The notes under the pieces: generated by a model
What the model was told of the DNA's origin: nothing
Database searches by the model: none
The model's input: the letters and a program-made list of their open reading frames with translations, nothing else
In this document: piece after piece, positions 506 to 63,535 of the stretch
How the letters are laid out: the number at the start of each line of letters is the position of its first letter
Position numbering within the stretch: position 1 is the stretch's first letter
Made by a program: the position numbers and the translations under genes
DNA from: Leptogorgia sarmentosa
Lineage: Eukaryota
NCBI GenBank assembly: GCA_964658305.1
Contig: OZ210884.1
Location: forward strand, 4,650,001 to 4,714,000
Direction: 5' to 3'
DNA: 64,000 nt

Positions 506-625
506 TTATACATTCACCCTTACACAAAATTTGTCTCGGACTATTACAGTAACAACGTCTTCCCCACGTTTTGTCGACGCAATGTTGAGCACGGCCACAA
601 GAAGACGCATCACACGCAGGATCAG
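506..625 (-). CDS. EGF-like exon after the SEA domain (7 Cys); last exon seen, gene continues left of the window
   Basis: tgtag|...|gtaagt, 120 nt, phase 1-1: [40 protein letters not shown]. Not in the ORF track. Confidence 0.8.
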   Translation of the reverse strand: MILRVMRLLVAVLNIASTKRGEDVVTVIVRDKFCVRVNV

Positions 626-3600
626 CTACAAGATAAATTACATCAATGAGAAACGTGATTAAATCTTTGTTTTAATTGCTTTGCTTCAGCAATCTTTACA
701 AAGAAAAGGCAAATCTGATTTCTTCGAAATATCCAATGATCATACAGAAATGAAGCTGAAATGTCTTTTCCCGGTAATATATTATAACCATAGCGTCGTT
801 ACGCATGTGGGGAAGGTATGGTTACGAAATTTTTCAATTAATATCAAATTTGTCCAAAAGATGACCATGAAGATCGTTTGATTGGATGATATCAAGTTGA
901 ACAAAGAGACGAAGACCAATTAGGGAGCTAACAGGAGTTAATTATTATAATTTCAACTGAACGACTTGATGATAACCTCTCTTTGAATTCAAAATTAGCT
1001 TAGTGCATCACTGTAGAATGAAGTCTTACCCTGATGAACAAGGTAATTTATGACGTTTTTTACAGTCTTATTATTGCTAGTGTTACCTATGTACGACGAG
1101 CTCTTGGTATATATAAAGAAAAATCGCGTTCAAGGATTCTGGCCACAAAACGAAACGAACTGACAGTGCCTATAGCACCACGTGTACATTCAAAACAAAT
1201 TCGAAGATAGATGGAGGATATATTACATGGTGGATATTACACTCATTCAGGAATGACCCATTCTCTGCACTCAATCGTAAAATATTGCTTTCACCACTCG
1301 AAGGTAAAATTTATATCTTCGCACTGACGTATAATTTCTTTTTTATTATTACATACCAGTCGTAACACACTGACGGCAACATTAATTTTTTATCGATAAT
1401 GGTAAATTTTTCAACCAAATACCCCCATATTACCCAAATTCGAACAATACCTAGGCATCGTTTCAGTTTTTTCTTGTATTATTTTTATCTTCTCAACAAG
1501 AACATATTTTTTCGTTGGACAAAGACCAAAATTCGCTGCATTTAGACGAACGTCGTCATTTTAGCGAATTGGAGCGAAACGATCACGTGATATACATCTT
1601 CACTAGTGAAGATATGGAAAATATCTCATAGTCATTTTTTCGGGATCTAACTGTCTACTATATAATGAATGGCTTTATCCAAAATTGACTTCATTAGCTA
1701 AGAGTAGACCCGTATCACTTAAAAAAAAGGATCGCTAACAATATACCATGGAAACAACTTCGGGCGAATGGAAAACGACCGCCAGGAATTTTCTATTGAT
1801 TCAAAATCTACTCAATTATTCCAATTACTTTCAATGCTGTTTTCCTAAAAAACCTACCAAATTCAGCAAATCGCCCTGTCTTGCTATCTTCTAATAGAAC
1901 ATATTTATCCCTCAGTTTCGACTTGCTGACATTGTCTTCTGTTACAGATACCAATTTTTTTCGGAATTCCATTTCAATTTTAACGAAATCATTCCCGACT
2001 TCAATTCGTGTTAGCGCTTGTGAAAAGTACACATACAGTGAAACTGTTGTTGCGGAATTCGTTCCAGTTCCTTCGCTGAAAATACTGATTGAAAAATAAA
2101 AATCAACAATGTAATTAATACTGAGCGAAAAATTGCCGAAATGTTTAAGATAGTCGAACGGAAGACTTAATAACGTAACTCTCTAGATTAAAACATGTTT
2201 ACTGGTTCTTGTACAAACACATTAATTCCTTTCACACAAATTTTCAATGCTATATGAATTAGCCCAAGCTGAAATCATTCGCCAGTAAATTCAACAAAGA
2301 AATTTGAGTAGTAGAAGATCCATTTAAAAAAACTCATTAACAAATGCCTCCTCGAATAATGTTTTGTACAAAAAATCTTTATAAACTAATTATTTAATTA
2401 TATTACCTGAAGCTAATCAAACGTGAACCCAGGTATAGTTCTGTTAAATTCGTTTCCATGAATTGTTCATTAGTCTAAAAAGGACATAATATGAAATTAT
2501 TATTTTATTTAATTTTCAATTAACGCCCATTCCATTAGCTGTAACAGTCCTTCTTAGATGTTTCTATACAATTGAAAGACATTTTGTGTCCGGCCAAAAT
2601 ACTGTCGTCATAACAAAATGCATTCCTGGATTGGCAAAAATGGCTTCCACTTTTCATTAAATTTGCGGTACAATAGAATAGGTGAAAACTAGTTGCGTTA
2701 TAGATTAGTGTGCTACTCAAAAACTTTAAAAATGCATACTAATCAAGTCTTTCTCCCATAATCACATTGAGGGCAAAATGACTAAAACATGATCAGCTAA
2801 TGCGGAGGACATTTTCGCTCAATTCAGGAGCAAAATTACTTGGCCCTGATTGGCTATACAAATTTCAGAATGTTTTGGGTTCATTTCACGTCGAACACTT
2901 AATGGTTCCCTCGAAGTATTTTTCGTGTGTGAAATCGACAAACTGAATTAGTTTCAAGCATTTTAGTCAACATTGAAGCAAATTAATTTTATTGAATAAA
3001 CTTGTCGTTTATATAATTCGATTTGTGTTTGAATAGCTAAATTAATCTTCTCTTCGACATGATTAACAAGTAATCGCATAGGGTCGTCGTAAAATTAAAG
3101 TTTAATTTCACTGGTGTTTTCAAAGTTTCGAAATTGGACCTTGTCGCTTCGCGTCCTGGGCAATTTGAGAAACTTCGAAATCGCGCTTGAAATTGATCCT
3201 TAATTTTACTCGGCCCTGCGGTTACTGATCTCTACTAGTTATAAGAACTTACAGCGTTCTCCATCATTCGTGAACGATTCAGGAATAATTTTGACAATTC
3301 ATCACCCAGGTCGCTCTCATAATCAAGACATTCCAGTATAGTAAAACTCAGTTGGAAAACAAACGCATCTAAGAGAAAAAACAACATTAGATATAGATTT
3401 CGTTGCGATTGCTTGCGCTGCGATAAGGCATATTTCCTGCGATTTCTAGTGCGATTTTCTCCTTTTCATGTATGTGAAAGAGTAAACTAGTGTCGAATGT
3501 TCAAGTACATTCGTTATCAATCCAGTCTTCTCGCATCTATCAAAACGAGAAAATCGCAGAAAAAAGCGCTCGTATATCAACAGGCTATAATAATACATCC

Positions 3601-6600
3601 TTTTCGGAAAGCATAAGTTACGGTGCTTAACTTGGGAGGGAAGCTTAATAGTCGCTAAAACTGATCAAAAATTGCTTATTAGAAAGGAACAGAAATTTAA
3701 AGCGACTTTGGCGAAGAGTTTAAAATTTCTCATAACATATGTGGTGTTGCTACCCGCAGCAATAGGTCATTCTTGTGGTAGGTACTTATAAGACTTGGTG
3801 ATTCAGCCTCGTTTTAGAGTTATGTTTTTCAAAACGGTGTATTCAGTCTATAAAAGTTCCATTATAATCTATGCCATAATCCAGAAAAGACCCACTTCGA
3901 TAACATTAATACAAATATAGGTTGTGCATACCTTCACAAATACCAGCATTGTTAGGCCATTGACCAAACGGACAGCCACATTCATGACTTCCGTATAGAT
4001 TTCTGCAAACCCTTCCGCTTTCGCAAGAGGATTCTATGGCACATTCGTTTATGTCTAAAATGAAATCATCGTCTTAGATTCCTAATTTTCTCATTTTGCA
4101 TAAGGTACTGTCTAAGGTACTCAGCTAAAACTACCAATCACGAATTTTTATATATTGTTGTATTTGCACTCGAAAATTTTAAAACTAATGTATGTGTTCA
4201 GTAATACCGGAAAATTGATCATGACACAGGGCGTCCGCAGGGAGGGAACTGGGAGGGAAGGGGATTCCCCCAGAACAGTGAGAGGGGATTGGGAAAGAGG
4301 GAAAGCGCGGGAAGGCTGAGTTTTCTATACACTGCAAGTTAGGAAATAAATTATGTAAATGTTATGATCATTTCAGACGAAAAAGTAAAGAGTCGAGCGA
4401 CAATCTTTTATGGGATCATCAATTTTATGTAAGATGCGGCTTTGAATAAATAAGTTCGTCAGCTTTGCAGTCGACTTTCAATTTGAATGTTCTAGCATTA
4501 AGCTAAACTCACGAGTGTATGAAAGGCTGAATAATTGTATGTTAAGAATAACAATACTGTTAGATCTATATGGGCACGGAGGGGGTGGTAATCATTTTGA
4601 GAGTAAGGAATCAGTAGGAAATCAGTGGAAATTTGCATGAAACTCTACGTCTTTTGTCATTCAATGGGGTACATATACATGCTCATAAAAAAGACGAAAA
4701 TTTATGATGCAATGTACACACTACAATTATCGCAAATAAGTTTCGCCAAAATTTGAATACGGAAGGTATCAGATTTTTAGTCATTCTGTAAGAAAAATTT
4801 GAATTAAAATGTAAGTGCTTACCGGTACACGACGGGGGTTCAAATCCGGACTTACACGTATATACACATCTTCCTATTTGGTCGTGACAAACTGCATTTT
4901 CTGGGCAACCGTTTGGTAATCTGCACTCATCGATATCTGTAATGTGGAAAATAGATTAAGTCAAAATAGGTCTCTCAAAATGTTCTAACTACATCGCGCC
5001 CTGTCGAGAAAAATGAATCACAATGCAAAATGCTGCTGATTTTCAACTGCGGATGCCACAATTTCGCACATCTTTCTTTTGAGGCTATTGTTCACCCAAC
5101 AGATTGTGAAATTACAGATTTGTTCTGTACAGTAATTTTGAATCGTTGCATAGACACAGGCAATAGCGTCAAAGCATGTGGCTACCTCCAAATAGTTTTT
5201 GCTTCGAAATAAAACTGGGTAAACTGCTGAATGAGGGAATCATTAGAAATATTGAAAAATATATAAAGAATACGCGGGCTTTCTAAATTACTTTATTGTC
5301 GTGGCAACTATAAACTTCATTGAATTCTTTCCTAAGTAAAGCAATATAGCATACGTAGCCACAAAGGCAAACGGACAGAAAAGGGATTTCTGCTGTTGTG
5401 CTCTCTAATAATTCAAAAGATTGACTGATTTCAATCTTGCAAAAGTTTGAAAAATAGGTCGGTCTAATAGATTGAATTCAGATTGACAAATACTATTGCA
5501 TTCTGCAATTCGATTGAAAGAATTGCAGTCGATAAAGATGACTGAGAATCGTTTCAATCTTTGCAAAGATTTACAATTCTAAGCCAATCACATTGCTCAA
5601 ATTTCGTGCGTGCGGCAGTAGCATTCCAAGAATAAGTTTCTTTATATCGAAAATCGTTTGAAATTTGATTGCAAAGTGACTCCTTTTAGATTGATTTTTC
5701 TTTCAATGGCGCATAGGATTGATTTTCAATCGAAAGTGTTTGGTCCGTAAGAACAATCCTAAAGAGATTGTTTTAACGGATAAATTGTGAGTTTTCAATC
5801 GTTTAAATTTTGAGAGAAAAAACGACGATTAAACAATATTCCCTACCTTCACAGTTCATGCCATCTCCAGTGAAACCATCCTTACACGCACAGGTATAAG
5901 AACCTGGCGTATTAGTACATGTTGCATTGCCATGGCAAGTATGACTACCATTTTTTCCACATTCGTTAATATCTAAATATTACATGTATAATCATAAAGA
6001 GGGCAAAATTACTAGAACCTGATTGGCTATAGCTAATGAGGAGGGCATCTTTTCTTAATTCAGGGGGCAAAATTACTTGGCCCTGATTGGCTAAATTTTC
6101 AGAACGTTTTTGTATTCAGTTTTTATATCGGATTCCGACTAGCTAATGGCTTCCTCGCAGTATTTGTCGCGTGTGAAATCGACAAATTGAGTTAGTTTCA
6201 AGCAATTTGGTAAAAATTTAAACAAATTTTTTGATTTTTAAATTTATTGTATATCGTTTATTTCATTCCCCAACGATTTTAAGAGACATTAATAACTACA
6301 TAGTGCCGCTCGTATAGTGCCGAATATAAAACCAAAAGTTGACATTCAATTTCTAGCGATTTATGTGTTTGAATATATCTTATCTTCAATATGATTAACA
6401 TGTAATCGTATTGGGCCTCGTAAAATTAAGGATTAATTTCACTTGTGTTTTCAAATTTTCGAAATTATATTTTTTTAGCTGCATCCGTTAAACAAAGACC
6501 TCAACAGGTAGTACCCGTTACTTCTCAATTGAGAAGATGGGTAATGCCCACGCTAAATCGTCTAAGTAGTCTGGCCTGGTAAAATATAGCTAAATATAGC

Positions 6601-9600
6601 TGGCCGTTCTATAATCATAATTATGCATTTAGCCGAGAAAAGCTGGTCAGCAGCGAACTCGAATTAGCTAAAGTGATATCACGGCCGAGCTTAAGTGAAA
6701 CTATACGCTATTGCATGACAACAGATTTTTACTGTGGCAGTACTTTTTCCATTGGATCTGACAGAAGACAAATAAGAAATGTCGACATAAATGAATTTCA
6801 ATATAAACAAGTGTTCAAGATGCTAAGACATTTTTGAATTCGACCTTCAAGTGGAAATTGGCTACTTCACATTTCCAAACCAGTCTTAGCGAATTTAATA
6901 TCCAGTCGTACACACGACTTCAAATTATATTACTAAGAATGCGTTTCGCAGAGAGAGAAAAAATGCACGTACCCACGCAATCCGTGCCATCTCCTGAATA
7001 TCCTTCCTTACATTTGCAAATAAAGGAGCCCTCTGTATTTGTGCAATTTGCCTGGGCGTGGCAATCATTCGTTGTAGAAGAATTGCATTCATTAACATCT
7101 AAAGACAAACAAATAATACAGAATTTTATACAGAATTCGTTCTGGTATAGATATTTTCTCTAATATGAATAATTTTTGCAGGCTAATTTATCCCCAAATT
7201 TATTCCAATTCCCTAATTTATCCAATTTTCTCTATAATTTATTCCCAATAAAATGTCAATTGGTCAAGACATGACCAAGTGTTCCTACAATACATGATAT
7301 AATATGGAAAATTAATATAAATCATGCGGTCAAAAATATCAAGATTGAACAATGTGCTGCCCATATTGTTAACATTTTTTACAATGATAAACAATATTTA
7401 ACTGTGTTATAATATAATTCAATCATGGTTTCGTCTATACATTGAAACAAACTGATTATTCTTTACCGGGTTATTTCTACATATTTCACTGACCTTTGCA
7501 ATCTGTACCAGAACCACTGAATCCTCCATTACAAGTACAGATATAGGATCCAAATGTCTCCGTACACGTTGCATTGCCATGGCAATCATGCATGGGGTCA
7601 GACACATCACATTCATTCACATCTAAATAATTTCAACAACTATAAATCAAATGGCAAGCATTACATCTGATAGAATGGAGGTTTGTGATTGGACGAGAAG
7701 CCTATTTGCTACTTAAAAAATGATGTTCCCAGTACGATTTAGTGGAATCACGTGGACATCACCCACCGTATATTTTTAGCGATGCTTGTCAATTGCAAGC
7801 TTAATAATGGTTTTGAATCTTTCCATATGATAATGGTATTTTATTTTTACAGAGCATAGTAGCTTGATAATTAGAGAAAGAGATCGATCCACGAACAATT
7901 TAGGTATTATAGGGAACTTCTATAGGGAACTATTTCTGGCCGACTGTTTACACGCTGGAATTGGGAAATCCAAGCTAAAGGTCAAGAGTGGACAACACAT
8001 GCACTAACGAGAAAACAACAGGATTATCGCAATCGAATAGCAATTACGGATTATCCAAATCGTGCAATTAAATGACGACAGCAAACAGTCGAATAAACAT
8101 CACTTCACACGTCCAACAGTTTTTGCCCGAAAAAAAGTCATTATAAATTTCTTCTAAACCAAAACACCAAATACGTATGTTTCAGGTAAATATTGTAAAG
8201 TTGGTAGTACAAACTTCATACAAAAGTCAAATTTGCAGTATTTTTGGCAACGCCATGTGTGTACACGTGTAATATATCCCGGAATCGAATTGCCCTTACT
8301 GTAACAGTGAGTTCCATTTCCAGTGAATCCAGTGTTGCAATCGCATCTATATGAACCAGTCAAATTAGTACAGGCAGCGTTCTCATCACAATTACTTTCG
8401 CCATTGATACATTCGTTCTTGTCTAGAAAATATGATTGATAAGAGGTTAGAAATTGAAATTGAAATTTTATTGAACATTTATCCACGTTTTTTAGATTCA
8501 TTTTCAATTTCACGCTTTTCAATTTACAACGACACATTTTCTTTACGAGAACACAAAGTGTGTACAAGGACACGCTGTTTATTAAAACTGCTGCCAGGTG
8601 TGAGGACACACACTGAGCGTAACATCACAGACACAGTATTTGCGTCGTATCACATGTCAATCTTTCTTTGAATGCGAATATATGTAGGCTATAATTCAGG
8701 AATAGAAAACATTTTCCATGTTTATATCGAGTTATGTAAACACGAGTGCAAGTTTGGAGAACGAGAAATGTGTGGAAACACGAACTCGAAGCGCGAGGGT
8801 TTCCACACATTTCGAGTTCTCCCAAACTTGCACGAGTGTTTACATAACTCAATGTAAACATAGGAAAATGTTTTCTATTATTTTTATAAAATAACACGAT
8901 GACAAAAGGGAATAACGGAATAGCAAGAGGCAGCGGGAAATAGCAACAACACGGCTGTTAGCCAATCACGCGCGCGCAGTCTTTTTCACTTACTTCCGGT
9001 TATTTTATAATGATTATTTGTAACAACATGCTAATATGATAAATTAATTGTATTCCTGCATTCTTAGATCCAAACAGTACTAGCTACCAATTGATTTTTT
9101 ACCGGGATTCATTGGAGAAAGATTTTTAATACAGTAATATATTGCAGTAAAATTCTCCGTCTTTAAATATAATTCCTCTTCTGCATAGAGGCTATTTGAG
9201 GAAAAAATAAAGTCGTAGTTTCGTTAATTTCAAAATACCCCACCGAAATTTTTGTAGTTTTGTTTTCAACGCGCAATTATAGATGAAGGGCGATGCAAAT
9301 TATTTGCCGTACCAATGCAGTTTATTCCATTTCCTTCAAATCCTTCGTTACATGTGCAATTGTAAGAACCAACAGTATTTGTACACATGGCATAGTCGTG
9401 GCAGTCGTTTTCACCCTCACATTCGTTTATCTCTGAAACACGATAGTAAAAAAGAATTTTTCATAAACATTACATGCGTTCAGTCGCAGTTTTGGTCGCA
9501 ATTATCTCTGAGTCAATGAATGCTTATAGCTGCTATCCATAATACGAGCTGGTAAAGCATATGTCATGCATGTGAATGTTACGAAAATATGAAAAGGACG

Positions 9601-12600
9601 CGAGATTCTATGAGGATTAAATGGCTATAACTATAACTGCAATGAATATGACTGTACACGTGACTATCACACTAACTGTCTTCTAACTAACTGTATTGTC
9701 TATCTAACTGTGGCTATAACTATAATGATCGCAACAACTTTTGGTATACTATGGCCATAAGCGCTACTTAATGCATATAGGACTAAATGATCAGTAATTA
9801 GTCTAATTTACCATCACACTCTGTCCCATTTCCTGTGAATCCTTCAAAACAGGTACAGTAGTAACTTCCTGATGTGTTCGTACATGTTGCATTTCCATCA
9901 CATGGCATAACGCTTTGGCACTCATCGATATCTGAAATAACATATGTGCATGTAATGAACATTTCAATTTCTCAAAATTACCCATGATTTTAATGCAGGT
10001 GATCTAACATGCTATTTCGGTAAATGTCATGGGCATACGGTCTGCATTTTTAAGGGAAGGGGAGGGGGAGGTGGCAGAAAGATCTCACGAGGCGCCACCA
10101 TGATTGGCACCGAGCGAGAAAATGTTGAACATTTAGAACTTCTAAGTTGCCAGGAACGACGATTTGAAAATACTAACTTCACTTTCTTTGTACGCTCCCT
10201 GAGGTGAACAAACAAAGGATTGTTGATATTACTTTATTCCTCAAATTTTTGCCCGAGTTATGCTCAAAATTTGCCCGAATTTTCGGCCTTGAATATTTTT
10301 CCAGTTGGGCAGTTGCACCCCTCCCCCCCCCCCCTCCCCTCTCGCCTCGCATGCCTATGGGTTATGTAGAATTATCCGGTAATGTAGAAACTAGGTGGAT
10401 CTGCTCAGTAAGCAGGTAAAATTGAACGCCATCACGAAATATAGCTTGCGGATATCTTGATACAATTCTCAAGTAATCATATCTTCTTAAGTTTTTCAAA
10501 ACTTTGGATGTAAGGTGATATGCAGTCCATGCTTTAATATCGGATTTGAAAAATTCTGCGTTCAGATGCATTTATAGTTAAAACAGAAGCAATCTTTCTG
10601 CGTACCGATGCAGTATGTTCCATCGCCTTCAAATCCTTCGTTACATGTACAGTTGTGGGAACCAACAGTATTCGTACAGTTGGCATTCTCGTGGCAATCG
10701 TTATAACCATCACACTCGTTTATCTCTGAAACACGTAAGTAAACAAAATTTTAACAACACTTTCAAAACAGTCATGTAAGTCGGAGTGGTGCATGTACGT
10801 AATAAATCTATTGAATGCTTGTAACTGTTGGCCAAAATACGACCAGGTGGCTCTAAAATCATGCAAAAACAAAGAGATACAGTGGTTGAGTGATGAGGGG
10901 CGATATATGACAAATTAATTATCAGCAAAGAAGATGTGTAAGGCTTAAAACAAATAATCATAAATGACTATATCAGTGAAACTATATTGTATTTAACGCG
11001 TGGCTTAGCTACTGTAAGTACTGCAGCTAAAATAGTGGTTATATTGACTATTGTTATAATGGTCTCTATACTCTATCAAAATTACTCGGACCACAAGCGC
11101 TATTCATGCTAATGAGATTTATATAACATGATTGTCCATATTTAAGCTAATTTACCTGTGCATACTATCCCATTGCCACTGAATCCCTCGAGACAGGTAC
11201 AGTTGTAACTTCCTTTTGTGTTCGTACATGTTGCATTTCCACCACACGGCATTATCTCGTCGCACTCATTGATATCTAAAGTAGTACATGGAGATGTATT
11301 GACAATTTCTTCCTATATATAAAATTACGCATCGCTACCTACAGGGACCGGTTGTTCACTGGGTTAGCGCTAACCCTGGGTTACAATTTGCCGCACTGTT
11401 TTAGTTTCTGTATTTCTACACGTTCGTTTATTTCAAGATTTCACTAAACAAAACTATACTATTGATCCATAAAATATCTGTGAAAAAATATGTCCAATTA
11501 AACAAGCTTCTGGGAAATTTCCTTTGAATTTTCCGCTAACTCTAGATTAAGCTAACCAACTTTTGAACAGCTGGTCCCGTATGATCTAAATTTCTATTCA
11601 GTTTAAGTAAATAAGTCAAATCTTCGTGAATATAGGTGGAATTCATGCATCAGTATTCAGATAAAATTTCCAGAACGATTATACATTTCGATAATTCACA
11701 GAACGGCAAAGATGATCTTCCTTCTTTTCATTGTGTCTATTTAGACTGTAACTACCGAGTGAAGAATGACCTAATTATGAAAAAATATTCAAACATATAG
11801 TTTGAAACAAGCTGAATTAACCGGAATCGGCATGATTTAAAAAATTGAAGGTCGCCAATGATTCATGCTATAGGTTCAGAAAATTTGCGTCACATTCAAC
11901 ATACAAGCATGTTATATTTCACAAACCTTCACAGAACGTTTCATTTCCAGTGAAACCATAATTACACATGCACCAAAATGACCCAAACGTGTTGTTGCAA
12001 AATGCATATTTATGACAAGGAGGTGGGTCATTATTACATTCATTGATATCTGCAACAGAGATTGAGAAACATTGTCCTGACAAAAATCTACGGCAAATTA
12101 AGCCATGAATATTAAATTAACCATGATTACTGGTATCGGTGAGCTATAATTATACTGGTGATTTTTTTTATAGAGATTTGGATTAGAGTAGCAGGAGGGA
12201 GAAAGGGCGAGCGGAGAAGGAGAGGGGGGAGGGGGAGGGCGATCGAGGGGAATTAGGCGAAGGGGCAAGTTAGAATAAGGGGGAGGGCTAGGGGAAACAA
12301 CAATAGTGAAGCAGGTAAATAAAACTCAGATATTTATAGTTTAGTCGAGAAAATACGTTTAAAGTATCCTTAAGCAATAATGTTTTTACTTGTGCGGTAA
12401 ACATTTTTCATTTGAATCTCATCATCAAAATCTCTTCAAAATATCATTGTTTATTGGTGTTAGAAAACCATTTTGATTTTGAAGATGGATATTTGGCCGA
12501 AAATCTATTTTCGGCAGCTAAAAATTGAGGCGAAGACTATGCTCGTCAGCCCTTCCTGTGGGTACTCACGTCAGCCCCCCTTGTTACGGTCGTGAACGGA

Positions 12601-48600: not shown

Positions 48601-51600
48601 TGTCGAAAAGAACACATATGGTATTTGGCAACGATCTAGAAGAAAAAACGTTATATTTTGAATGAAAAGACAAGGATAAACCCAATTATATAGCTAACAC
48701 AATGAACATTAAAGTCACAGCTCTCCTAATTTCTACGCTGTTGAACCAGATTAGCCATGTTGCTTTTTTTTCCGAAATACTTGGAAAATCAATAAAACGA
48801 TACCATCACTATTTTAAAGTTTCAAACTTACTCAATGTTTATTGCGAATCGCTTTTAGCTAACATTGCTTTTTCTTTTATTATGGATCATCGTGATTGTT
48901 GTGCTTTTTTCCCTTCTTTTAATACAACGATTTAGTTGTTTTACACATAGAATTTCGCTGAAAGTTAAGATACATTCTCGTGCATTTTTCTTATATTTTA
49001 ATTTACCTTCAATTTCACATCTTTCACCCATGAATCCAGCGGGACAACTGCATTCAAATGAAGAATCAACGTTCCTACAAGTTCCACCATTGCAACATGG
49101 GGCACTTGCACATGAGCTATCTACAATGGAGAATAACAAGGCGAGCTTAATTCATATCGACATACGTCATAATGGGAAGCTTCAACTATGACACTAGTGT
49201 TTTGCAAGTGCCATAGCATCTTATTGCACGATTTTGAAACAATTAATCTTGACTTACTGCAGATTGCGAACTGGTCCAATTGTCTCCAATGTATTGAAAC
49301 ATATTGAGCACAGTCTGCAGAATAAGCATCGAGAGCTTGACAATAACAAACGTCAGGATCGTCCTTACAAGCGCACATATCGTACACACAATTATCGTAG
49401 TATCCTCTCGCAGTGGCATTAATATGGCTAGCACATGAGTTGAAAGGAGGGCTGAATAATATAGAACAGTTGGCTTGGGCTATTGAAAGCCTGCTCGAGT
49501 TAGCCATACATGGATGCATTACTTCCGTCGCGTTAGCACAACTAGGATCAACTTTCCAAGAATTTCCAAATTCCACTGCATCATCAACAATTGTACCATA
49601 AGATGTCCAGAAGTCGTCGTCTTCCATTTGGTTGAAATTGCCGCATAATCCAACTGTTCGATTCACATAGCGCCCCCTGATTGTCACACGAGCATTATAA
49701 ACATTGTTCCAAAACACGGTCACACCGTAGTCACTTGTTATTAAGGTATATCCATTGTTAGCTTCAGATATGTTGAAACCTTTAGAGAAAACAGCAAAGT
49801 TAAAATTAAAAAGGCAATGTAGTGTTGTAAACACAACACCGTCTTACTTACCTGGGTAACTGACTGGTAGTGGTGATGATACCTCTCCACCATTTACCAA
49901 AATCATTCCTCTACGGAGTTCGATAGAATAACTTAGGAAGATCACTGTTAACGACTTTGTGCACGAATGTAATCCACTTGCACAGGGTTCATTTTTCTGC
50001 CGCACTTCAAACATGTCGCCCACAATATCTTTGGCCAAAACATATTCGCATGTCCCCATAAAGTCATAAAGCTTTCCATCAAAAGTTGAATAATGCGGAT
50101 CTCCTCGGGTATGGCAACTTCTTTCAACTAGATATAAATATAGATATAAGAGTGTCACAAATGGTATGCTTAAAAATTCAAAATGAAAAATATGAGCATT
50201 TTTACACCCATGGAAACTTTGTGTCATTAAATGGGTTAATTTCTTATTTTGGAATTTCCAATTTTCTTCAATTTGGTATTATAATTGGCACCATTTATCC
50301 CCAAGTAACGGCGCAATGGCATTATCTTTAACTGGAATAGCACCTTGGTAACGAAATCTGAATTTCGGGAAAAATCGTGTTGGGGGGCCCGTTGGTCATA
50401 ACTCCATGTGAGTGGGAGCTCATCACTTCACCTCCGCTCTTGGTTTCTCTGAGAAATCACTATACCTACACAAACGTTCTTGATTGACGGCGAATATTTG
50501 AAAAATTTGAGTAGTTTATCTGAATATTTCAATTATGATCAATTGAAATTTGAATTCCAATTAGTAAACCCACTTTAAGTCGTGGAAATGATTTTCTTAC
50601 CCAGTTCGCAGTTAGGTTCTCTGTAATCAGCTTTACAAACGCATTTGAAGATGTTACCAACTTGACCACACTCTTCGTTTTCTCCACAAGAAATAACGCT
50701 GCAGTTTGTCCCTGAAAAAATGTTATCAGTCTTACTTAATTTCTAGGAAATAACGTTTTTTCAAGATAAAAAGTTTGGATATATACAAAATACGTTTGAA
50801 GCATTTGTTATTTTTTCAGAAATTTGTATAACGTGGTTGCAGCAAAGACGAATAATTCTGGAATTTCGAGATAATCCAGAAAAAATGCGTCGACTTTCTG
50901 CATGTACATGTCGAGTTATAGGAATATTTATGTATGTAAAATGTTTAACACTCTCTTCTATTCTGTTCATGTACCATCCCACCCTCACATGCATGTATCA
51001 CCGCAAAATTCTGTGTCCCACCATCATGATTATTATCATGATCACTAAGTTAGTGCAGATAATCAACTTCATTTCTATTTTTGATATGATTTTACCTTCA
51101 CAAACAACACCAGTTCCATTAAAACCTTCGTTGCAATCACATTCAAACGAGCCAATTGAATTAGTACAGGTGGCATTCTGGTGACAGGGGTAGTCCTCGC
51201 ATTCATTAATATCTAAAAATAGTTTAACACAAATATTGGATTGTAGATGCAGTATTGCCTGTAGAACAGTCTTGTTTTCAAATATACCTTCTTGTTGCGT
51301 AATATCCGTTTTCAGTTCAGTGAAAATAACGCACGCATCGATAGAAAGTATAAATGTTCGAGTTGAGCAAACTTTCTTCTTCAGGCGAGAAGGAAGCATT
51401 TTATTCTTTGGCAAAACGATGTTCTGACGTAAAAATCTAGTTATTTTTTAGACGCGTATCTCTTAATGGTTGGGTTAGCTATAGCAAAATTTGTCAAAAA
51501 GCGCTGTAAAGTGAGAATTCTAAAAATTTGTATAGTAAAACATTCTCGTCCTAAGTGTATTAGCGTACCTGTACAATCTGTGCCATTGCTGGTAAAACCA

Positions 51601-54600
51601 TTGATGCAAGTGCAGTTGAAACCTCCAAGATAATCAGTACAGGTAGCGTTCTTGTGGCAATACGTTCCAATACAACATTCGTCGTCGTCTAGCGAAAATG
51701 AAGTAGTATATATTAAATAAAAGCAAGTATACACCTAATTGTACACCAACCTAGTTTAAGTACGAAACAGCCATTTACCAATTTCTATGTGTAAGGGTGA
51801 ATTCATAAACAAAACAAGACAAATTCATCCTAACTTTACAAGCGATTGAAACGAACAAACTCTTCTTCATATTTCGATTTTTATATTCACTTTTGTTTCA
51901 AAAAGTACGGGACGAAATTATTTTCAGAAAATACTCTTAATATATGACACTAGTCAGCAGTGAACAATTTATTACAACTGCGGCCTAAACTGGAAACTCT
52001 CGAAAGATAGCTTGATAGATATTCGTACGTAGTTCTAAAATTTTAAACAAACTCTATATTACTCACCATATGCCACAATTATGTCATGTATATCACCGCT
52101 GTATGTGAAATTGCTTTGCACTTCAAGCGATTCTTTTGAGATTTTGTCAATGCGATTATTTTCCGTATCCAGGACATACAAATGAAGAACGTCTGATGTC
52201 AAAATGATTGGATCAAAATAGGTTATGTTCAGGTCACTTGTTTGTCCAGTGAATAGAGTTCTCATCACCCTGTGCCTGCTTCCATCGTAATTAGCCCAGT
52301 ATATCGCGTCATTGTATTGATCAATAGTAATTGATTGTCCAGCACCACCAGTCATGAGGTTCATTACGTTCCCAGTTGATGGATCGTACCGTACGACGGC
52401 AGGATCAGTCGTTTTTGTAATGTACAGGTAGCTGTGAAGAAAGAAAATAATTTCGATAATTTTCTCCCATCACAGACATCAACTAAAAAACTTCCTCCAT
52501 AAATGTTGCAACACCAAAAAAGCAACCCTATCCTTTTAAAAACAATTTCAGACGGTAATGTATTTTGAGCTAGGGTTAGGAAATATCGTTAACTTAACGA
52601 AAATCCATTTATGCTTACCCATTTCTCATGTCCACTTCCATATCTTTCACTCCTGAAACAGTTGATAGTTGTGCAACTTCACCGTCCGTACCACTTTCGA
52701 TATCGTAAACATATATCTTGTCTTGTAATTCGTGATGATAATATATCAACTGGTTTCGTCCATCAACCGCGAAAAATTCCACATCGTCGAGATCAAACTC
52801 AGTCTGGTTTGACCCATCCAACTTATAACTAAACATTTTATCGCCGGCATAAAGATATAGCCGCTTGTTTATTCCGTCGAAAGATAACAGTGCATTATTT
52901 ATGTTGTCATTCACCATGCTGGGGGTATTGTTAGATTTTAGTTTGTTATGATATAGCGTACCAGAGGATGTCGAAAAGAACACATATGGTATTTGGCAAC
53001 GATCTAGAAGAAAAAACGTTATATTTTGAATGAAAAGACAAGGATAAACCCAATTATATAGCTAACACAATGAACATTAAAGTCACAGCTCTCCTAATTT
53101 CAACGCTGTTGAACCAGATTAGCCATGTTGCTTTTTTTTCCGAAATACTTGGAAAATCAATAAAACGATACCATCACTATTTTAAAGTTTCAAACTTACT
53201 CAATGTTTATTGCGAATCGCTTTTAGCTAACATTGCTTTTTCTTTTATTATGGATCATCGTGATTGTTGTGCTTTTTTCCCTTCTTTTAATACAACGATT
53301 TAGTTGTTTTACACATAGAATTTCGCTGAAAGTTAAGATACATTCTCGTGCATTTTTCTTATATTTTAATTTACCTTCAATTTCACATCTTTCACCCATG
53401 AATCCAGCGGGACAACTGCATTCAAATGAAGAATCAACGTTCCTACAAGTTCCACCATTGCAACATGGGGCACTTGCACATGAGCTATCTACAATGGAGA
53501 ATAACAAGGCGAGCTTAATTCATATCGACATACGTCATAATGGGAAGCTTCAACTATGACACTAGTGTTTTGCAAGTGCCATAGCATCTTATTGCACGAT
53601 TTTGAAACAATTAATCTTGACTTACTGCAGATTGCGAACTGGTCCAATTGTCTCCAATGTATTGAAACATATTGAGCACAGTCTGCAGAATAAGCATCGA
53701 GAGCTTGACAATAACAAACGTCAGGATCGTCTTCACAAGCGCACATATCGTACACACAATTATCGTAGTATCCTCTCGCAGTGGCATTAATATGGCTAGC
53801 ACATGAGTTGAAAGGAGGGCTGAATAATATAGAACAGTTGGCTTGGGCTATTGAAAGCCTGCTCGAGTTAGCCATACATGGATGCATTACTTCCGTCGCG
53901 TTAGCACAACTAGGATCAACTTTCCAAGAATTTCCAAATTCCACTGCATCATTAACAATTGTACCATAAGATGTCCAGAAGTCGTCGTTTTCCATTTCGT
54001 TGAAATTGCCGCATAATCCAACAGTTCGATTCACATAGCGCCCCCTGATTGTCACACGAGCATTATAAACATTGTTCCAAAACACGGTCACACCGTAGTC
54101 ACTTGTTATTAAGGTATATCCATTGTTAGCTTCAGATATGTTGAAACCTTTAGAGAAAACAGCAAAGTTAAAATTAAAAAGGCAATGTAGTGTTGTAAAC
54201 ACAACACCGTCTTACTTACCTGGGTAACTGACTGGTAGTGGTGATGATACCTCTCCACCATTTACCAAAATCATTCCTCTACGGAGTTCGATAGAATAAC
54301 TTAGGAAGATCACTGTTAACGACTTTGTGCACGAATGTAATCCACTTGCACAGGGTTCATTTTTCTGCCGCACTTCAAACATGTCGCCCACAATATCTTT
54401 GGCCAAAACATATTCGCATGTCCCCATAAAGTCATAAAGCTTTCCATCAAAAGTTGAATAATGCGGATCTCCTCGGGTATGGCAACTTCTTTCAACTAGA
54501 TATAAATATAGATATAAGAGTGTCACAAATGGTATGCTTAAAAATTCAAAATGAAAAATATGAGCATTTTTACACCCATGGAAACTTTGTGTCATTAAAT

Positions 54601-57600
54601 GGGTTAATTTCTTATTTTGGAATTTCCAATTTTCTTCAATTTGGTATTATATTTGGCACCATTTATCCCCAAGTAACGGCGCAATGGCATTAACTTCAAC
54701 TGTAATAGCACCCTGGTACGAATTGTGAATTTCCTGAAAATCGTGTTTGGGGGGGGGGGGGGGGGGCTCGTCGGTCATCATTCCAGGTGAGTGGGAGCTC
54801 ATCACCTTTCACCTGCGCTCTTGGTTTCCGTGAGAAATCAGCATGCCAACACAAACGTTCTTGATTGTCGACGAATATTTGAAAAGTTTGAGTAGTTTAT
54901 CTGAATATTTCAATTAGGATCAATTGAAATTTGAATTCCAATTAGTAAACCCACTTTAAGTCGTGGAAATGATTTTCTTACCCAGTTCGCAGTTAGGTTC
55001 TCTGTAATCAGCTTTACAAACGCATTTGAAGATGTTACCAACTTGACCACACTCTTCGTTTTCTCCACAAGAAATAACGCTGCAGTTTGTCCCTGAAAAA
55101 ATGTTATCAGTCTTACTTAATTTCTAGGAAATAACGTTTTTTCAAGATAAAAAGTTTGGATATATACAAAATACGTTTGAAGCATTTGTTATTTTTTCAG
55201 AAATTTGTATAACGTGGTTGCAGCAAAGACGAATAATTCTGGAATTTCGAGATAATCCAGAAAAAATGCGTCGACTTTCTGCATGTACATGTCGAGTTAT
55301 AGGAATATTTATGTATGTAAAATGTTTAACACTCTCTTCTATTCTGTTCATGTACCATCCCACCCTCACATGCATGTATCACCGCAAAATTCTGTGTCCC
55401 ACCATCATGATTATTATCATGATCACTAAGTTAGTGCAGATAATCAACTTCATTTCTATTTTTGATATGATTTTACCTTCACAAACAACACCAGTTCCAT
55501 TAAAACCTTCGTTGCAATCACATTCAAACGAGCCAATTGAATTAGTACAGGTGGCATTCTGGTGACAGGGGTAGTCCTCGCATTCATTAATATCTAAAAA
55601 TAGTTTAACACAAATATTGGATTGTAGATGCAGTATTGCCTGTAGAACAGTCTTGTTTTCAAATATACCTTCTTGTTGCGTAATATCCGTTTTCAGTTCA
55701 GTGAAAATAACGCACGCATCGATAGAAAGTATAAATGTTCGAGTTGAGCAAACTTTCTTCTTCAGACGAGAAGGAAGCATTTTATTCTTTGGCAAAACGA
55801 TATTCTGACGTAAAAATCTAGTTATTTTTTAGACGCGTATCTCTTAATGGTTGGGTTAGCTATAGCAAAATTTGTCAAAAAGCGCTGTAAAGTGAGAATT
55901 CTAAAAATTTGTATAGTAAAACATTCTCGTCCTAAGTGTATTAGCGTACCTGTACAATCTGTGCCATTGCTGGTAAAACCATTGATGCAAGTGCAGTTGA
56001 AACCTCCAAGATAATCAGTACAGGTAGCGTTCTTGTGGCAATACGTTCCAATACAACATTCGTCGTCGTCTAGCGAAAATGAAGTAGTATATATTAAATA
56101 AAAGCAAGTATACACCTAATTGTACACCAACCTAGTTTAAGTACGAAACAGCCATTTACCAATTTCTATGTGTAAGGGTGAATTCATAAACAAAACAAGA
56201 CAAATTCATCCTAACTTTACAAGCGATTGAAACGAACAAACTCTTCTTCATATTTCGATTTTTATATTCACTTTTGTTTCAAAAAGTACGGGACGAAATT
56301 ATTTTCAGAAAATACTCTTAATATATGACACTAGTCAGCAGTGAACAATTTATTACAACTGCGGCCTAAACTGGAAACTCTCGAAAGATAGCTTGATAGA
56401 TATTCGTACGTAGTTCTAAAATTTTAAACAAACTCTATATTACTCACCATATGCCACAATTATGTCATGTATATCACCGCTGTATGTGAAATTGCTTTGC
56501 ACTTCAAGCGATTCTTTTGAGATTTTGTCAATGCGATTATTTTCCGTATCCAGGACATACAAATGAAGAACGTCTGATGTCAAAATGATTGGATCGAAAT
56601 AGGTTATGTTCAGGTCACTTGTTTGTCCAGTGAATAGAGTTCTCATCACCCTGTGCCTGCTTCCATCGTAATTAGCCCAGTATATCGCGTCATTGTATTG
56701 ATCAATAGTAATTGATTGTCCAGCACCACCAGTCATGAGGTTCATTACGTTCCCAGTTGATGGATCGTACCGTACGACGGCAGGATCAGTCGTTTTTGTA
56801 ATGTACAGGTAGCTGTGAAGAAAAAAAATAATTTCGATAATTTTCTCCCATCACAGACATCAACTAAAAAACTTCCTCCATAAATGTTGCAACACCAAAA
56901 AAGCAACCCTATCCTTTTAAAAACAATTTCAGACGGTAATGTATTTTGAGCTAGGGTTAGGAAATATCGTTAACTTAACGAAAATCCATTTATGCTTACC
57001 CATTTCTCATGTCCACTTCCATATCTTTCACTCCTGAAACAGTTGATAGTTGTGCAACTTCACCGTCCGTACCACTTTCGATATCGTAAACATATATCTT
57101 GTCTTGTAATTCGTGATGATAATATATCAACTGGTTTCGTCCATCAACCGCGAAAGATTCCACATCGTCGAGATCAAACTCAGTCTGGTTTGACCCATCC
57201 AACTTATAACTAAACATTTTATCGCCGGCATAAAGATATAGCCGCTTGTTTATTCCGTCGAAAGATAACAGTGCATTATTTATGTTGTCATTCACCATGC
57301 TGGGGGTATTGTTAGATTTTAGTTTGTTATGATATAGCGTACCAGAGGATGTCGAAAAGAACACATATGGTATTTGGCAACGATCTAGAAGAAAAAACGT
57401 TATATTTTGAATGAAAAGACAAGGATAAACCCAATTATATAGCTAACACAATGAACATTAAAGTCACAGCTCTCCTAATTTCTACGCTGTTGAACCAGAT
57501 TAGCCATGTTGCTTTTTTTTCCGAAATACTTGGAAAATCAATAAAACGATACCATCACTATTTTAAAGTTTCAAACTTACTCAATGTTTATTGCGAATCG

Positions 57601-60600
57601 CTTTTAGCTAACATTGCTTTTTCTTTTATTATGGATTATCGTGATTGTTGTGCTTTTTTCCCTTCTTTTAATACAACGATTTAGTTGTTTTACACATAGA
57701 ATTTCGCTGAAAGTTAAGATACATTCTCGTGCATTTTTCTTATATTTTAATTTACCTTCAATTTCACATCTTTCACCCATGAATCCAGCGGGACAACTGC
57801 ATTCAAATGAAGAATCAACGTTCCTACAAGTTCCACCATTGCAACATGGGGCACTTGCACATGAGCTATCTACAATGGAGAATAACAAGGCGAGCTTAAT
57901 TCATATCGACATACGTCATAATGGGAAGCTTAAACTATGACACTAGTGTTTTGCAAGTGCCATAGCATCTTATTGCACGATTTTGAAACAATTAATCTTG
58001 ACTTACTGCAGATTGCGAACTGGTCCAATTGTCTCCAATGTATTGAAACATATTGAGCACAGTCTGCAGAATAAGCATCGAGAGCTTGACAATAACAAAC
58101 GTCAGGATCGTCTTCACAAGCGCACATATCGTACACACAATTATCGTAGTATCCTCTCGCAGTGGCATTAATATGGCTAGCACATGAGTTGAAAGGAGGG
58201 CTGAATAATATAGAACAGTTGGCTTGGGCTATTGAAAGCCTGCTCGAGTTAGCCATACATGGATGCATTACTTCCGTCGCGTTAGCACAACTAGGATCAA
58301 CTTTCCAAGAATTTCCAAATTCCACTGCATCATTAACAATTGTACCATAAGATGTCCAGAAGTCGTCGTCTTCCATTTGGTTGAAATTGCCGCATAATCC
58401 AACTGTTCGATTCACATAGCGCCCCCTGATTGTCACACGAGCATTATAAACATTGTTCCAAAACACGGTCACACCGTAGTCACTTGTTATTAAGGTATAT
58501 CCATTGTTAGCTTCAGATATGTTGAAACCTTTAGAGAAAACAGCAAAGTTAAAATTAAAAAGGCAATGTAGTGTTGTAAACACAACACCGTCTTACTTAC
58601 CTGGGTAACTGACTGGTAGTGGTGATGATACCTCTCCACCATTTACCAAAATCATTCCTCTACGGAGTTCGATAGAATAACTTAGGAAGATCACTGTTAA
58701 CGACTTTGTGCACGAATGTAATCCACTTGCACAGGGTTCATTTTTCTGCCGCACTTCAAACATGTCGCCCACAATATCTTTGGCCAAAACATATTCGCAT
58801 GTCCCCATAAAGTCATAAAGCTTTCCATCAAAAGTTGAATAATGCGGATCTCCTCGGGTATGGCAACTTCTTTCAACTAGATATAAATATAGATATAAGA
58901 GTGTCACAAATGGTATGCTTAAAAATTCAAAATGAAAAATATGAGCATTTTTACACCCATGGAAACTTTGTGTCATTAAATGGGTTAATTTCTTATTTTG
59001 GAATTTCCAATTTTCTTCAATTTGGTATTATAATTGGCACCATTTATCCCCAAGTAACGGCGCAATGGCATTATCTTTAACTGGAATAGCACCTTGGTAA
59101 CGAAATCTGAATTTCGGGAAAAATCGTGTTGGGGGGCCCGTTGGTCATAACTCCATGTGAGTGGGAGCTCATCACTTCACCTCCGCTCTTGGTTTCTCTG
59201 AGAAATCACTATACCTACACAAACGTTCTTGATTGACGGCGAATATTTGAAAAATTTGAGTAGTTTATCTGAATATTTCAATTATGATCAATTGAAATTT
59301 GAATTCCAATTAGTAAACCCACTTTAAGTCGTGGAAATGATTTTCTTACCCAGTTCGCAGTTAGGTTCTCTGTAATCCGCCTTACAAACGCATTTGAAGA
59401 TATTACCAATTTGACCACACTCTTCGTTTTCTCCACAAGAAATAACGCTGCAGTTTGTAGCTGAAAATATTTTATGTTGTTTTTAACCTGCTGCTCAAAA
59501 CTTATTGTAGTTCCCGTTAAAAAATAATATTTTAATTATTCACGAAATTCGGCCAAATATGATTGCAATTTCAAGAGGAAAGCAGTTACGACTGGCATGT
59601 CGTGTCAGGAAAATAAAGGTATTAGAAATATTAAGCAGGCTCTTCTATTCTATTCGTCGCGCGACTGGCGAAAAATTGTTTCAACGACTATTATTTTTCT
59701 TTTTATCAGGTTTATGGTTTTTGCTATGATTTTACCTTCACAAACAACACCAGTTCCATTAAAACCTTCATTACATTGACATTCAAACGAACCAATTGTA
59801 TCAGTACAGGTAGCATTCTGGTCGCAGGGATTGTTCTTGCATTCATTGACATCTGAAATGGTTGAATATATATTTTGTACGTGAGGAGATTGCAATATTG
59901 GACTCTCAAAGCTACAATAAATATTTAAATCGTCTTAATTTGAAATAAATTTACAGAGTTAACCGGAGAAAAACCTTTCAAATTGTTTTGTAGCAACTGT
60001 TGTTTTTTTTTTTCAATTTAGACCATGTGCATGCACTCAATTTGCATTATGAATGCAACGGTACAGGAAACCGTGGCGAATCATGTGCGGTAACTTGTGG
60101 AGTGAATATTCATATTTTATAGTAGTAAATGAGTATCTTTAGTTATAAATGAATTTTATCTTTATTAACTTCCGACAACTGATTTCGAAAGAATTTATAC
60201 CGACTGAACCTGGACTGAGGAAATCATCTCAGGAAGCAAAAAAGTCGTTTGGTCAGTGCTATAATAGCGAAGTAGAAAATGTTATTCAAAAAAGATGTCC
60301 ACTGTTTTGAACAAGGTAGTACAGATAAATTTCCTTGTAATTATCCAAAATGAACGTTGACGTCAAAAGTGCATGGTGAATTGTTTTTGTTGAACTTTCA
60401 CTTCTGGTTTTGTTCATTATTTATTCACCAAATATTATGCAAGGTAAGTCGAAAAGTTAATAAATAGTTCGTTTAATTTGCAAGGTTTCGGATAGTTTAA
60501 TATCCGTTATGAAGATCTAATCAGATCTGTTATTGGAATGTTATTTTTCAATGCAGCATCGCCCCCTATGAAATTTTGCAACAAATTGTGGAATATTTTG

Positions 60601-63535: not shown

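Follow-up and report, generated by a model that had tools for sequence, protein, structure and literature searches.

A giant octocoral gene segment that alternates propeller-EGF blocks with VWD-C8 units, and its putative stalk-proximal break point

We describe here a gene segment of Leptogorgia sarmentosa whose 99 exons encode 7,480 residues of a giant protein built from propellers, EGF domains and VWD-C8 units. Its new feature is the presence in one protein of nine VWDs with the GDPH motif, of which the one nearest to a stalk of EGF domains lacks both of the tether cysteines. The protein is not an LRP, an FCGBP or a gel mucin, and is apparently an undescribed octocoral domain shuffle of known parts. 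We give an even chance to a reading in which one octocoral-type gene encodes a giant membrane-anchored surface filament that can be shed at the ninth VWD.

Results

The window, by which we mean the entire 64,000-nucleotide stretch of DNA analysed, has 36% G+C, and its six-frame translation places EGF, VWD and propeller-like frames on the minus strand only. Splicing by coordinates from 63535 to 506 on that strand yields 22,443 nt of coding sequence with no stop codons, interrupted by 98 small introns (72-1258 nt), all of which are GT-AG; both ends of the gene lie outside the window, and its last exon within the window starts at 625. Splice sites were picked by consensus and phase, and several boundaries, including those at 19935, 17016, 15901, 15162, 3368 and 2474, were placed with the aid of the read tables, so that transcript agreement at these positions is not independent. 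The frame is not a product of chance, because of its length, the matching splice phases at 98 introns and the RNA-like joints. The initial annotation proposed one spliced frame of about 7,500 residues with 11 propellers, nine VWD-C8 units, 56 EGF domains and a SEA-like domain, and our local profiles return identical counts, with two exons for each propeller, one for each EGF domain and three for the SEA-like domain. The order is (propeller-EGF3-VWD-C8-EGF) x9, propeller, EGF2, propeller, EGF17, SEA-like and EGF, and is laid out along the minus strand as follows.

506..63535, minus strand: gene segment of 99 exons, 7,480 residues
59736..63535, minus strand: propeller 1 (exons 63535-63148 and 62379-62015) and two EGF exons (60756-60637 and 59852-59736)
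30245..59475, minus strand: tandem array, about 6.6 copies of EGF-VWD-C8-EGF-propeller-EGF-EGF, with VWDs 1-7 and propellers 2-8
26318..30036, minus strand: three EGF domains, VWD8-C8 (28440-28171 and 27351-26842) and an EGF domain; full set of VWD cysteines, CGLC intact
22314..25607, minus strand: propeller 9 (25607-25220 and 24734-24358) and three EGF domains
20883..21883, minus strand: VWD9-C8 (21883-21611 and 21407-20883); GDPH kept, two disulfide pairs lost
21849..21872, minus strand: GDPH of VWD9 (21860-21849); Ser (21872-21870) replaces the tethering Cys; break predicted at residues 5740/5741
21274..21285, minus strand: CGLC changed to CGLA, by which the second Cys of the tether is lost too
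16361..19935, minus strand: EGF domain, propeller 10 (19572-19182 and 18929-18553), two EGF domains and propeller 11 (17382-17016 and 16734-16361)
3932..15901, minus strand: stalk of 17 single-exon EGF domains, mostly of calcium-binding type
1858..3368, minus strand: SEA-like domain (3368-3253, 2474-2407 and 2084-1858) without the canonical GSVVV; weak family match
506..625, minus strand: last EGF-like exon in the window, with seven Cys

The 7,480-residue peptide has a mass of about 828 kDa, a pI of 4.4, 191 N-glycosylation sequons and 514 cysteines. Each of the 56 EGF exons has six or seven cysteines, and 32 of them are of the calcium-binding type. A domain check of the spliced exons had been called for, and Pfam searches of 28 representative exons confirm VWD, C8 and EGF: VWD and C8 score above the curated cut-off in all three distinct units, and EGF families match seven of the eight EGF exons run, the exception being the last exon (507-623). 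The SEA assignment is weak: only the first of the three SEA exons matches (E 1e-4), and its 22.7 bits fall short of the 26.4 cut-off. Among the 28 exons there was no match to TIL, LDLa or Ldl_recept_b, and eight relatives gave none to TIL or LDLa either; the LDLa motif was not found anywhere in the 7,480 residues, although the unseen N-terminus could still contain some. The highest Ser+Thr content over the whole peptide is 24% per 100 residues, with 3% Pro, so that there is no PTS region and the protein is not a hydrated mucin brush; the initial annotation was thus right in finding neither LDLa nor TIL nor PTS. There is no transmembrane stretch within the 7,480 residues (best hydropathy 1.67) and Rfam returned no matches, and a scan for hidden exons in the introns outside the middle array copies gave one candidate that is not Cys-rich.

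Six sequencing runs, none with a recorded kind, cover 16.2-26.1 kb of the window. Three of these (X4, X5 and X6) are samples of one study, and we read them as transcripts because GT-AG joints show in their contigs. Among the 30 joints listed, all 24 CT..AC joints of X4-X6 fall on predicted introns; five of the others are non-splice joints of X1, which has no spliced joints among those listed, and one, flanked by seven other letters, is the VWD intron of an array copy. The comparison covers the window below 36 kb and uses short-read contigs, none of which spans the whole frame. A 3,870 nt contig of X5 runs from the end of propeller 9 through three EGF domains, VWD9-C8, an EGF domain, propeller 10, two EGF domains and propeller 11 into the stalk, a 2,643 nt contig of X4 covers 19182-25607 and beyond, and the VWD9-EGF-propeller 10 junctions are spliced in X4, X5 and X6. 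All eight junction types of the array unit are touched when joints, replaced letters and loose ends are combined. One gene is favoured over several separate transcription units, with spliced contigs crossing the propeller-VWD-stalk boundaries.

Two thirds of the protein length is recent duplication. The array unit has eight exons and 670 residues, repeats with a period of 4,368-4,382 nt, and is 98-99.5% identical between copies, introns included; propeller 1 and its two EGF exons have diverged from the array copies (61% identity). The six full copies differ pairwise at 3-13 positions per 2,010 exon bases, and no two are alike. Within the introns, copies of equal parity show 1-6 differences, against 27-32 when an odd copy is compared with an even one, and this split suggests that an 8.75-kb dimer was repeated three times. 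The variable codons, nine synonymous and 11 non-synonymous, are too few for a selection test. Because seven of the VWD units are near-identical array copies, the VWD-C8 units reduce to three distinct types and the propellers to five. In the intron after the third EGF domain, odd and even copies alternate throughout 37600-59475 with about 28 differences and a poly-C run. We also note that in all seven array copies (57869-57756 down to 31611-31498) the EGF domain that follows C8 carries one additional Cys (PCCNGG) that seems to be unpaired, at a position occupied by Tyr, Phe or Leu in the VWD8 and VWD9 units and in relatives; this spare Cys could permit inter-chain cross-links. An RGD in the seven array VWDs was rejected as an integrin site, as it overlaps GDPH and is absent from VWD8, VWD9 and three homologue VWDs.

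GDPH is present in all nine VWDs, and in all nine units an EGF domain begins within three residues of C8. The tether cysteines are kept in eight of the nine VWDs and are missing only in VWD9. An alignment of seven VWDs, four from the window and three from homologues with the five near-identical array copies left out, shows three Cys pairs that co-vary without exception: columns 6/140 and 28/178 are lost together in VWD9 only, and VWD8 and VWD9 alone have the pair of columns 36/137. The column 6 Cys lies five residues before the Asp of GDPH, as C472 lies before D477 in FCGBP; VWD9 lacks both this Cys and its partner, the second Cys of CGLC, together with a second pair. The three homologue VWDs all keep their tether cysteines. 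CGLA is not an assembly error, since the exon is identical in X4 and X5 with no differences. A search with the CGLA exon found no counterpart of VWD9 elsewhere (two matches among 147 candidates, neither alike), and the loss may therefore reflect relaxed constraint in one lineage.

An exact YWTD occurs in none of the 11 propellers; neither this nor the near-identical tandem array is mentioned in the initial annotation. Pfam Ldl_recept_b misses the propellers of the window exons and of eight relatives alike. A profile of the first propeller half finds LRP4, LRP6 and LRP2 among the PDB entries, with E values from 1e-16 to 1e-8 (15 of 19 matches), whereas the second-half profile is weak (best PknD 0.003, LRP6 0.17). 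In the Atlas, a relative's propeller is grouped with Ldl_recept_b clusters (19 of the 30 in the top set, score 0.90). The Paramuricea clavata propeller P0009, modelled from a 19-row alignment, reaches a pLDDT of 89.9 (a single-sequence attempt reached 33, so that the fold is an alignment-based model), and its listed Foldseek matches are LRP2/4/6, ApoER2 and LDLR only, at 14-20% identity. P0009 is 65% identical to the propeller 11 region, and this fold evidence thus concerns a relative's propeller and not one from the window. The LRP-type propellers of the initial annotation accordingly find their matches in the LDL-receptor family by all three routes, and a predicted LRP-type six-bladed fold that has lost the YWTD motif is supported.

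All 11 propellers start with a Cys, and an extra Cys is found in each of the 11 EGF domains directly after them, compared with none of the 45 others; the same ECC occurs in eight of the nine relatives checked. From this one-to-one pairing we infer that each propeller would be clamped by an extra disulfide to the EGF domain that follows.

The close named relatives found for this protein are octocoral, and all of those described here are automatic gene models. The second-half propeller profile recovered 10 proteins among 7,996 candidates of 220-2,000 residues: five from P. clavata, three from Dendronephthya gigantea, one ENA frame that is almost identical to the window and one weak bacterial match. 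The first-half profile gave 640 matches at E<=0.001 against 1.84 billion representatives, and the 10 of these looked up by name comprised six octocoral proteins, one weak frog match and three without a name. VWD was found by local profile in none of the best 150 of the 640, of which about 47, counted by eye, are single-exon frames below 200 residues that could not show one. CAB4021860.1 of P. clavata contains one full unit (C8-EGF-propeller-EGF3-VWD-C8) and is 61% identical over 797 residues. XP_028406465.1 of D. gigantea has the order VWD-C8-EGF-propeller-EGF2-VWD-C8-EGF3, after which come a hydrophobic helix, of hydropathy 3.3, and a tail bearing eight motifs of the YxxL type, and XP_028413545.1 has a signal peptide, propeller, three EGF domains, a transmembrane helix and a tail with four such motifs; one relative's tail has an NPxY. 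XP_028394541.1 has a signal-peptide-like start and contains no more than the module of propellers 10 and 11 and the stalk, and its model ends without a transmembrane helix. The LDLa-free propeller-EGF scaffold belongs to a wider octocoral family that is multi-copy in D. gigantea. Two D. gigantea proteins (P0007 and P0052) have cytoplasmic tails with paired YxxL motifs, which we take to resemble ITAM/ITIM, hinting at a family of octocoral signalling receptors.

A tree of 21 propellers, from which five near-identical copies of the array and two P. clavata isoforms in which one half is doubled were omitted, groups propellers 10 and 11 each with counterparts in both other species (100/100 and 95/98) and places the VWD-associated propellers in a clade (100/100) that includes two P0001 propellers with no VWD in their partial model. 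Together with the stand-alone module XP_028394541.1, this suggests an older propeller-stalk module to which the VWD array was added. The propeller-VWD architecture is likely restricted to octocorals, in searches by name that were based on sequence rather than architecture and covered proteins of up to 2,000 residues; the initial annotation's view that it is lineage-specific is thus borne out by octocoral matches, and falls short of proof as to restriction.

At the left edge, the SEA-like domain lacks the GSVVV self-cleavage motif of SEA-type membrane mucins, and this region obtained a top Atlas score of 0.83 and nothing relevant in the PDB. Contigs of X4 and X6 continue past 506 for 181-198 nt into exon sequence that is absent from the window, and the 23 letters common to both extensions read ARTFRGT in frame, which we take to resemble the first strand of a SEA domain. 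Searches for the C-terminus gave none among 38 candidates at E<=0.1 with the third SEA exon, none in metagenome contigs with the 23-nt motif, and 323 pattern matches, none confirmed, in metagenome contigs with the SEA exon. Some RNA-like contigs diverge strongly from the window over 1858-3368 and 506-625, where their depth is roughly double, and point to a paralogue or a divergent allele whose C-terminus is similar; the extension past 506 may thus not be exclusive to the giant gene.

Discussion

The nature of the domains suggests a plausible sequence of events at the cell surface. The product would be a giant secreted-pathway extracellular glycoprotein, N-glycosylated at many of its 191 sequons, and held by a type I membrane anchor that we place beyond the left edge of the window from the position of the SEA-like domain and the transmembrane helices of relatives. 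Asp-Pro self-cleavage would occur at the GDPH motifs, as in FCGBP and MUC4. After cleavage VWD1-8 would stay tethered by disulfides, as in FCGBP, while VWD9, next to the stalk, would be held non-covalently only, as in MUC4, and force or a chemical change could free an outer part of about 5,740 residues there; VWD9-C8 would remain on the cell with two propellers and the stalk. The likely role would be a sheddable glycocalyx, or a mucus-anchoring or adhesion layer, in which propellers and VWDs offer many candidate binding sites. Two D. gigantea relatives, XP_028406465.1 and XP_028413545.1, end in a hydrophobic helix and tail, in favour of an anchored filament, whereas no such helix is present in the model of XP_028394541.1, the D. 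gigantea protein that best corresponds to the stalk module.

The prediction for VWD9 draws on what is reported for related domains. In FCGBP, the C472-C611 bond is predicted by a model to be the sole covalent link after GDPH cleavage (available text of PMC8267560), and MUC4 is cut at GDPH into subunits that associate non-covalently (available text of PMC6853952). According to the available text of PMC10880436, cleavage stabilises VWD-C8 without TIL, domains without the tether bond could in principle fragment upon cleavage, recombinant MUC2 D4 is not cleaved, so that GDPH is not always cut, and no purpose is known for GDPH cleavage in VWD domains. By analogy, VWD9 is a predicted MUC4-like non-covalent break point. 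Against release, a beta-strand buried in the VWD sandwich, as in MUC4, may hold tightly without a disulfide.

One alternative, which we regard as unlikely, is a matrix or mucus scaffold secreted without an anchor in the membrane, comparable to FCGBP or fibrillin, in which spare cysteines would form cross-links. No transmembrane stretch occurs in the window, the abundance of EGF domains, over half of the calcium-binding type, recalls fibrillin, FCGBP ranks first in the PDB for a relative's VWD region, and the unpaired Cys after C8 is present in every array copy. However, a membrane-proximal region is indicated by the C-terminal SEA-EGF arrangement and by the further exon that starts like a SEA strand, a transmembrane helix and tail occur in two relatives, and a protein of this kind is named neither in Table 1 of the available text of PMC7853314, which lists 102 skeleton and sclerite proteins of Corallium rubrum, nor in 11 of its 13 supplements by term search. 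A skeletal-matrix role was also considered and rejected: the C. rubrum LRP4-like protein CR_7 starts unrelated over the 400 residues visible, and the GDPH matches in the same 11 supplements fall in unrelated proteins.

It is equally doubtful that the protein is primarily an uptake or immune-signalling receptor, in which propellers and VWD-C8 units would bind particles or microbes, the stalk would raise them above the cell surface, and a tyrosine-motif tail would signal or endocytose as in LRP2. The LRP-type fold, the YxxL-rich tails of relatives with their one NPxY, and the multi-copy nature of the family in D. gigantea suit this proposal, but the LDLa repeats that are the main ligand-binding parts of LRPs are missing, seven near-identical units suit length or avidity better than ligand diversity, and the tail of the giant gene itself lies outside the window. 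A receptor is compatible with an anchored, sheddable filament, and the two readings are not exclusive.

We think it very improbable that the size is partly an artefact, through over-expansion of the array in assembly or through separate transcripts for the VWD array and the propeller-stalk module: the small number of differences between array copies, the want of a contig across the whole frame in a comparison that stops at 36 kb, and the signal-peptide-like N-terminus of the D. gigantea counterpart of the last two propellers and stalk would fit, but every copy pair differs, the odd/even alternation is regular, the junctions from VWD9 to propeller 10 are spliced in all three runs, contig depth is higher over the array than beside it, as if copies collapse (a weak point, depth not being copy number), and the architecture stands even with a single array copy.

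Comparison with known systems places the giant protein between several families. As in FCGBP, VWD-C8 units with GDPH are repeated many times in tandem, a Cys precedes the Asp by five residues, and there are recent near-identical internal repeats; FCGBP is also the top PDB match of the D. gigantea relative P0006 (E 6e-133). FCGBP differs in that its VWD-C8-TIL(-E) units stand behind FCGBP_N, at an end that in the giant protein lies right of the window, are all tethered and are secreted, whereas in the giant protein EGF domains follow straight after C8, propellers alternate with the VWDs, one VWD is untethered and there is no TIL match. In its available text, the survey of VWD proteins in PMC4948705 found no proteins with FCGBP_N and VWD in Cnidaria, and the propeller-VWD combination is absent from it, a point on which its supplements may bear. 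MUC4 and the cnidarian mucin4-like and SUSD2-like proteins likewise have a GDPH VWD followed by EGF domains towards a membrane anchor, MUC4 has non-covalent subunits as predicted for VWD9, and some sea-anemone mucin4-like proteins add a C-terminal SEA (available text of PMC9080433). Unlike these, the giant protein has no visible NIDO, AMOP or PTS, its VWDs being preceded by three EGF domains and a propeller rather than by NIDO-AMOP, and it has propellers and nine VWDs with C8 instead of one.

LRP1, LRP2, LRP4 and LRP6 share with it the six-bladed propeller followed by EGF, in agreement with the profile and fold matches, but the giant protein has no LDLa and no exact YWTD, and has an extra propeller-EGF Cys pair, VWD-C8 and a SEA-like domain. 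Gel-forming mucins and VWF differ in their PTS and their 3+1 VWD-C8-TIL layout, neither of which is present here. The pro-EGF precursor, cueball and nidogen G3 combine LDLa-free propellers with EGF repeats, have no VWD and are far shorter; of these, pro-EGF shares a type I membrane topology with the small D. gigantea relatives. The suggestion that VWD-C8 takes the place of the LRP ligand-binding clusters thus holds as a positional analogy only, the LDLa-free scaffold being nearer in plan to pro-EGF than to LRP1/2, with VWD-C8 added.

We found no description of the propeller-VWD architecture, nor any characterised family with the same propeller-EGF3-VWD-C8-EGF repeat, in a literature search that left most subscription journals outside. 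It is not described in the available texts of PMC9080433, PMC12549020 and PMC9117669; the last has a protein that combines VWD with EGF repeats, which we liken by its description, and in that text neither propellers nor repeated VWD-C8 are described. The initial annotation recognised this architecture in no named protein, which agrees with that search; auto-annotated fragments of P. clavata and D. gigantea nonetheless carry it. The octocoral models CAB4021860.1, CAB4021859.1, XP_028406465.1 and P0006 (IgGFc-binding-like) have the same unit, and are partial or short, misnamed (SCO-spondin, VWF-like) and uncharacterised.

A wider proposition, which we hold to be improbable as a whole, is that octocorals have a surface-receptor family built on a YWTD-less, disulfide-clamped LRP propeller, one member of which became a filament of tunable length, with copy number set through the 4.4-kb array. 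This member would combine FCGBP-type tethered GDPHs with a single MUC4-type untethered GDPH at the junction with the older module, would shed a self-cross-linking ectodomain of >600 kDa as a PTS-free mucus or adhesive scaffold, and would thereby unmask a signalling stump.

Eight tethered and one untethered GDPH in the same protein offer an internal control that separates cleavage for stability from cleavage for release. The gene also marks an uncharacterised octocoral family that is scattered under wrong names (fibrillin-like, SCO-spondin, LRP4, IgGFc-binding) and that may bear on surface mucus, adhesion or self-recognition in soft corals. This is tempered by the fact that every domain is known, that cnidarians often shuffle such domains, and that so much of the length is recent duplication.

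Several smaller features of the locus deserve mention. The intron after VWD9-C8 contains, at 20660-20783 on the minus strand, an AG followed by an in-phase frame that includes RRKR and ends at a stop; it is a possible alternative last exon for a secreted form, and has no RNA cover in three runs. Within the stalk (9313-11275), the EGF pairs 11275/10725 and 9931/9432 are a local two-exon duplication with 77-85% DNA identity. Short intronic repeats at 8701-9010, 26022-26212, 2758-2984, 5988-6228 and 60896-61843, some with inverted arms and very high depth in X1, are likely small non-autonomous transposons, and a further intron contains an array of palindromic TCACATGTGA units at 29434-29713.
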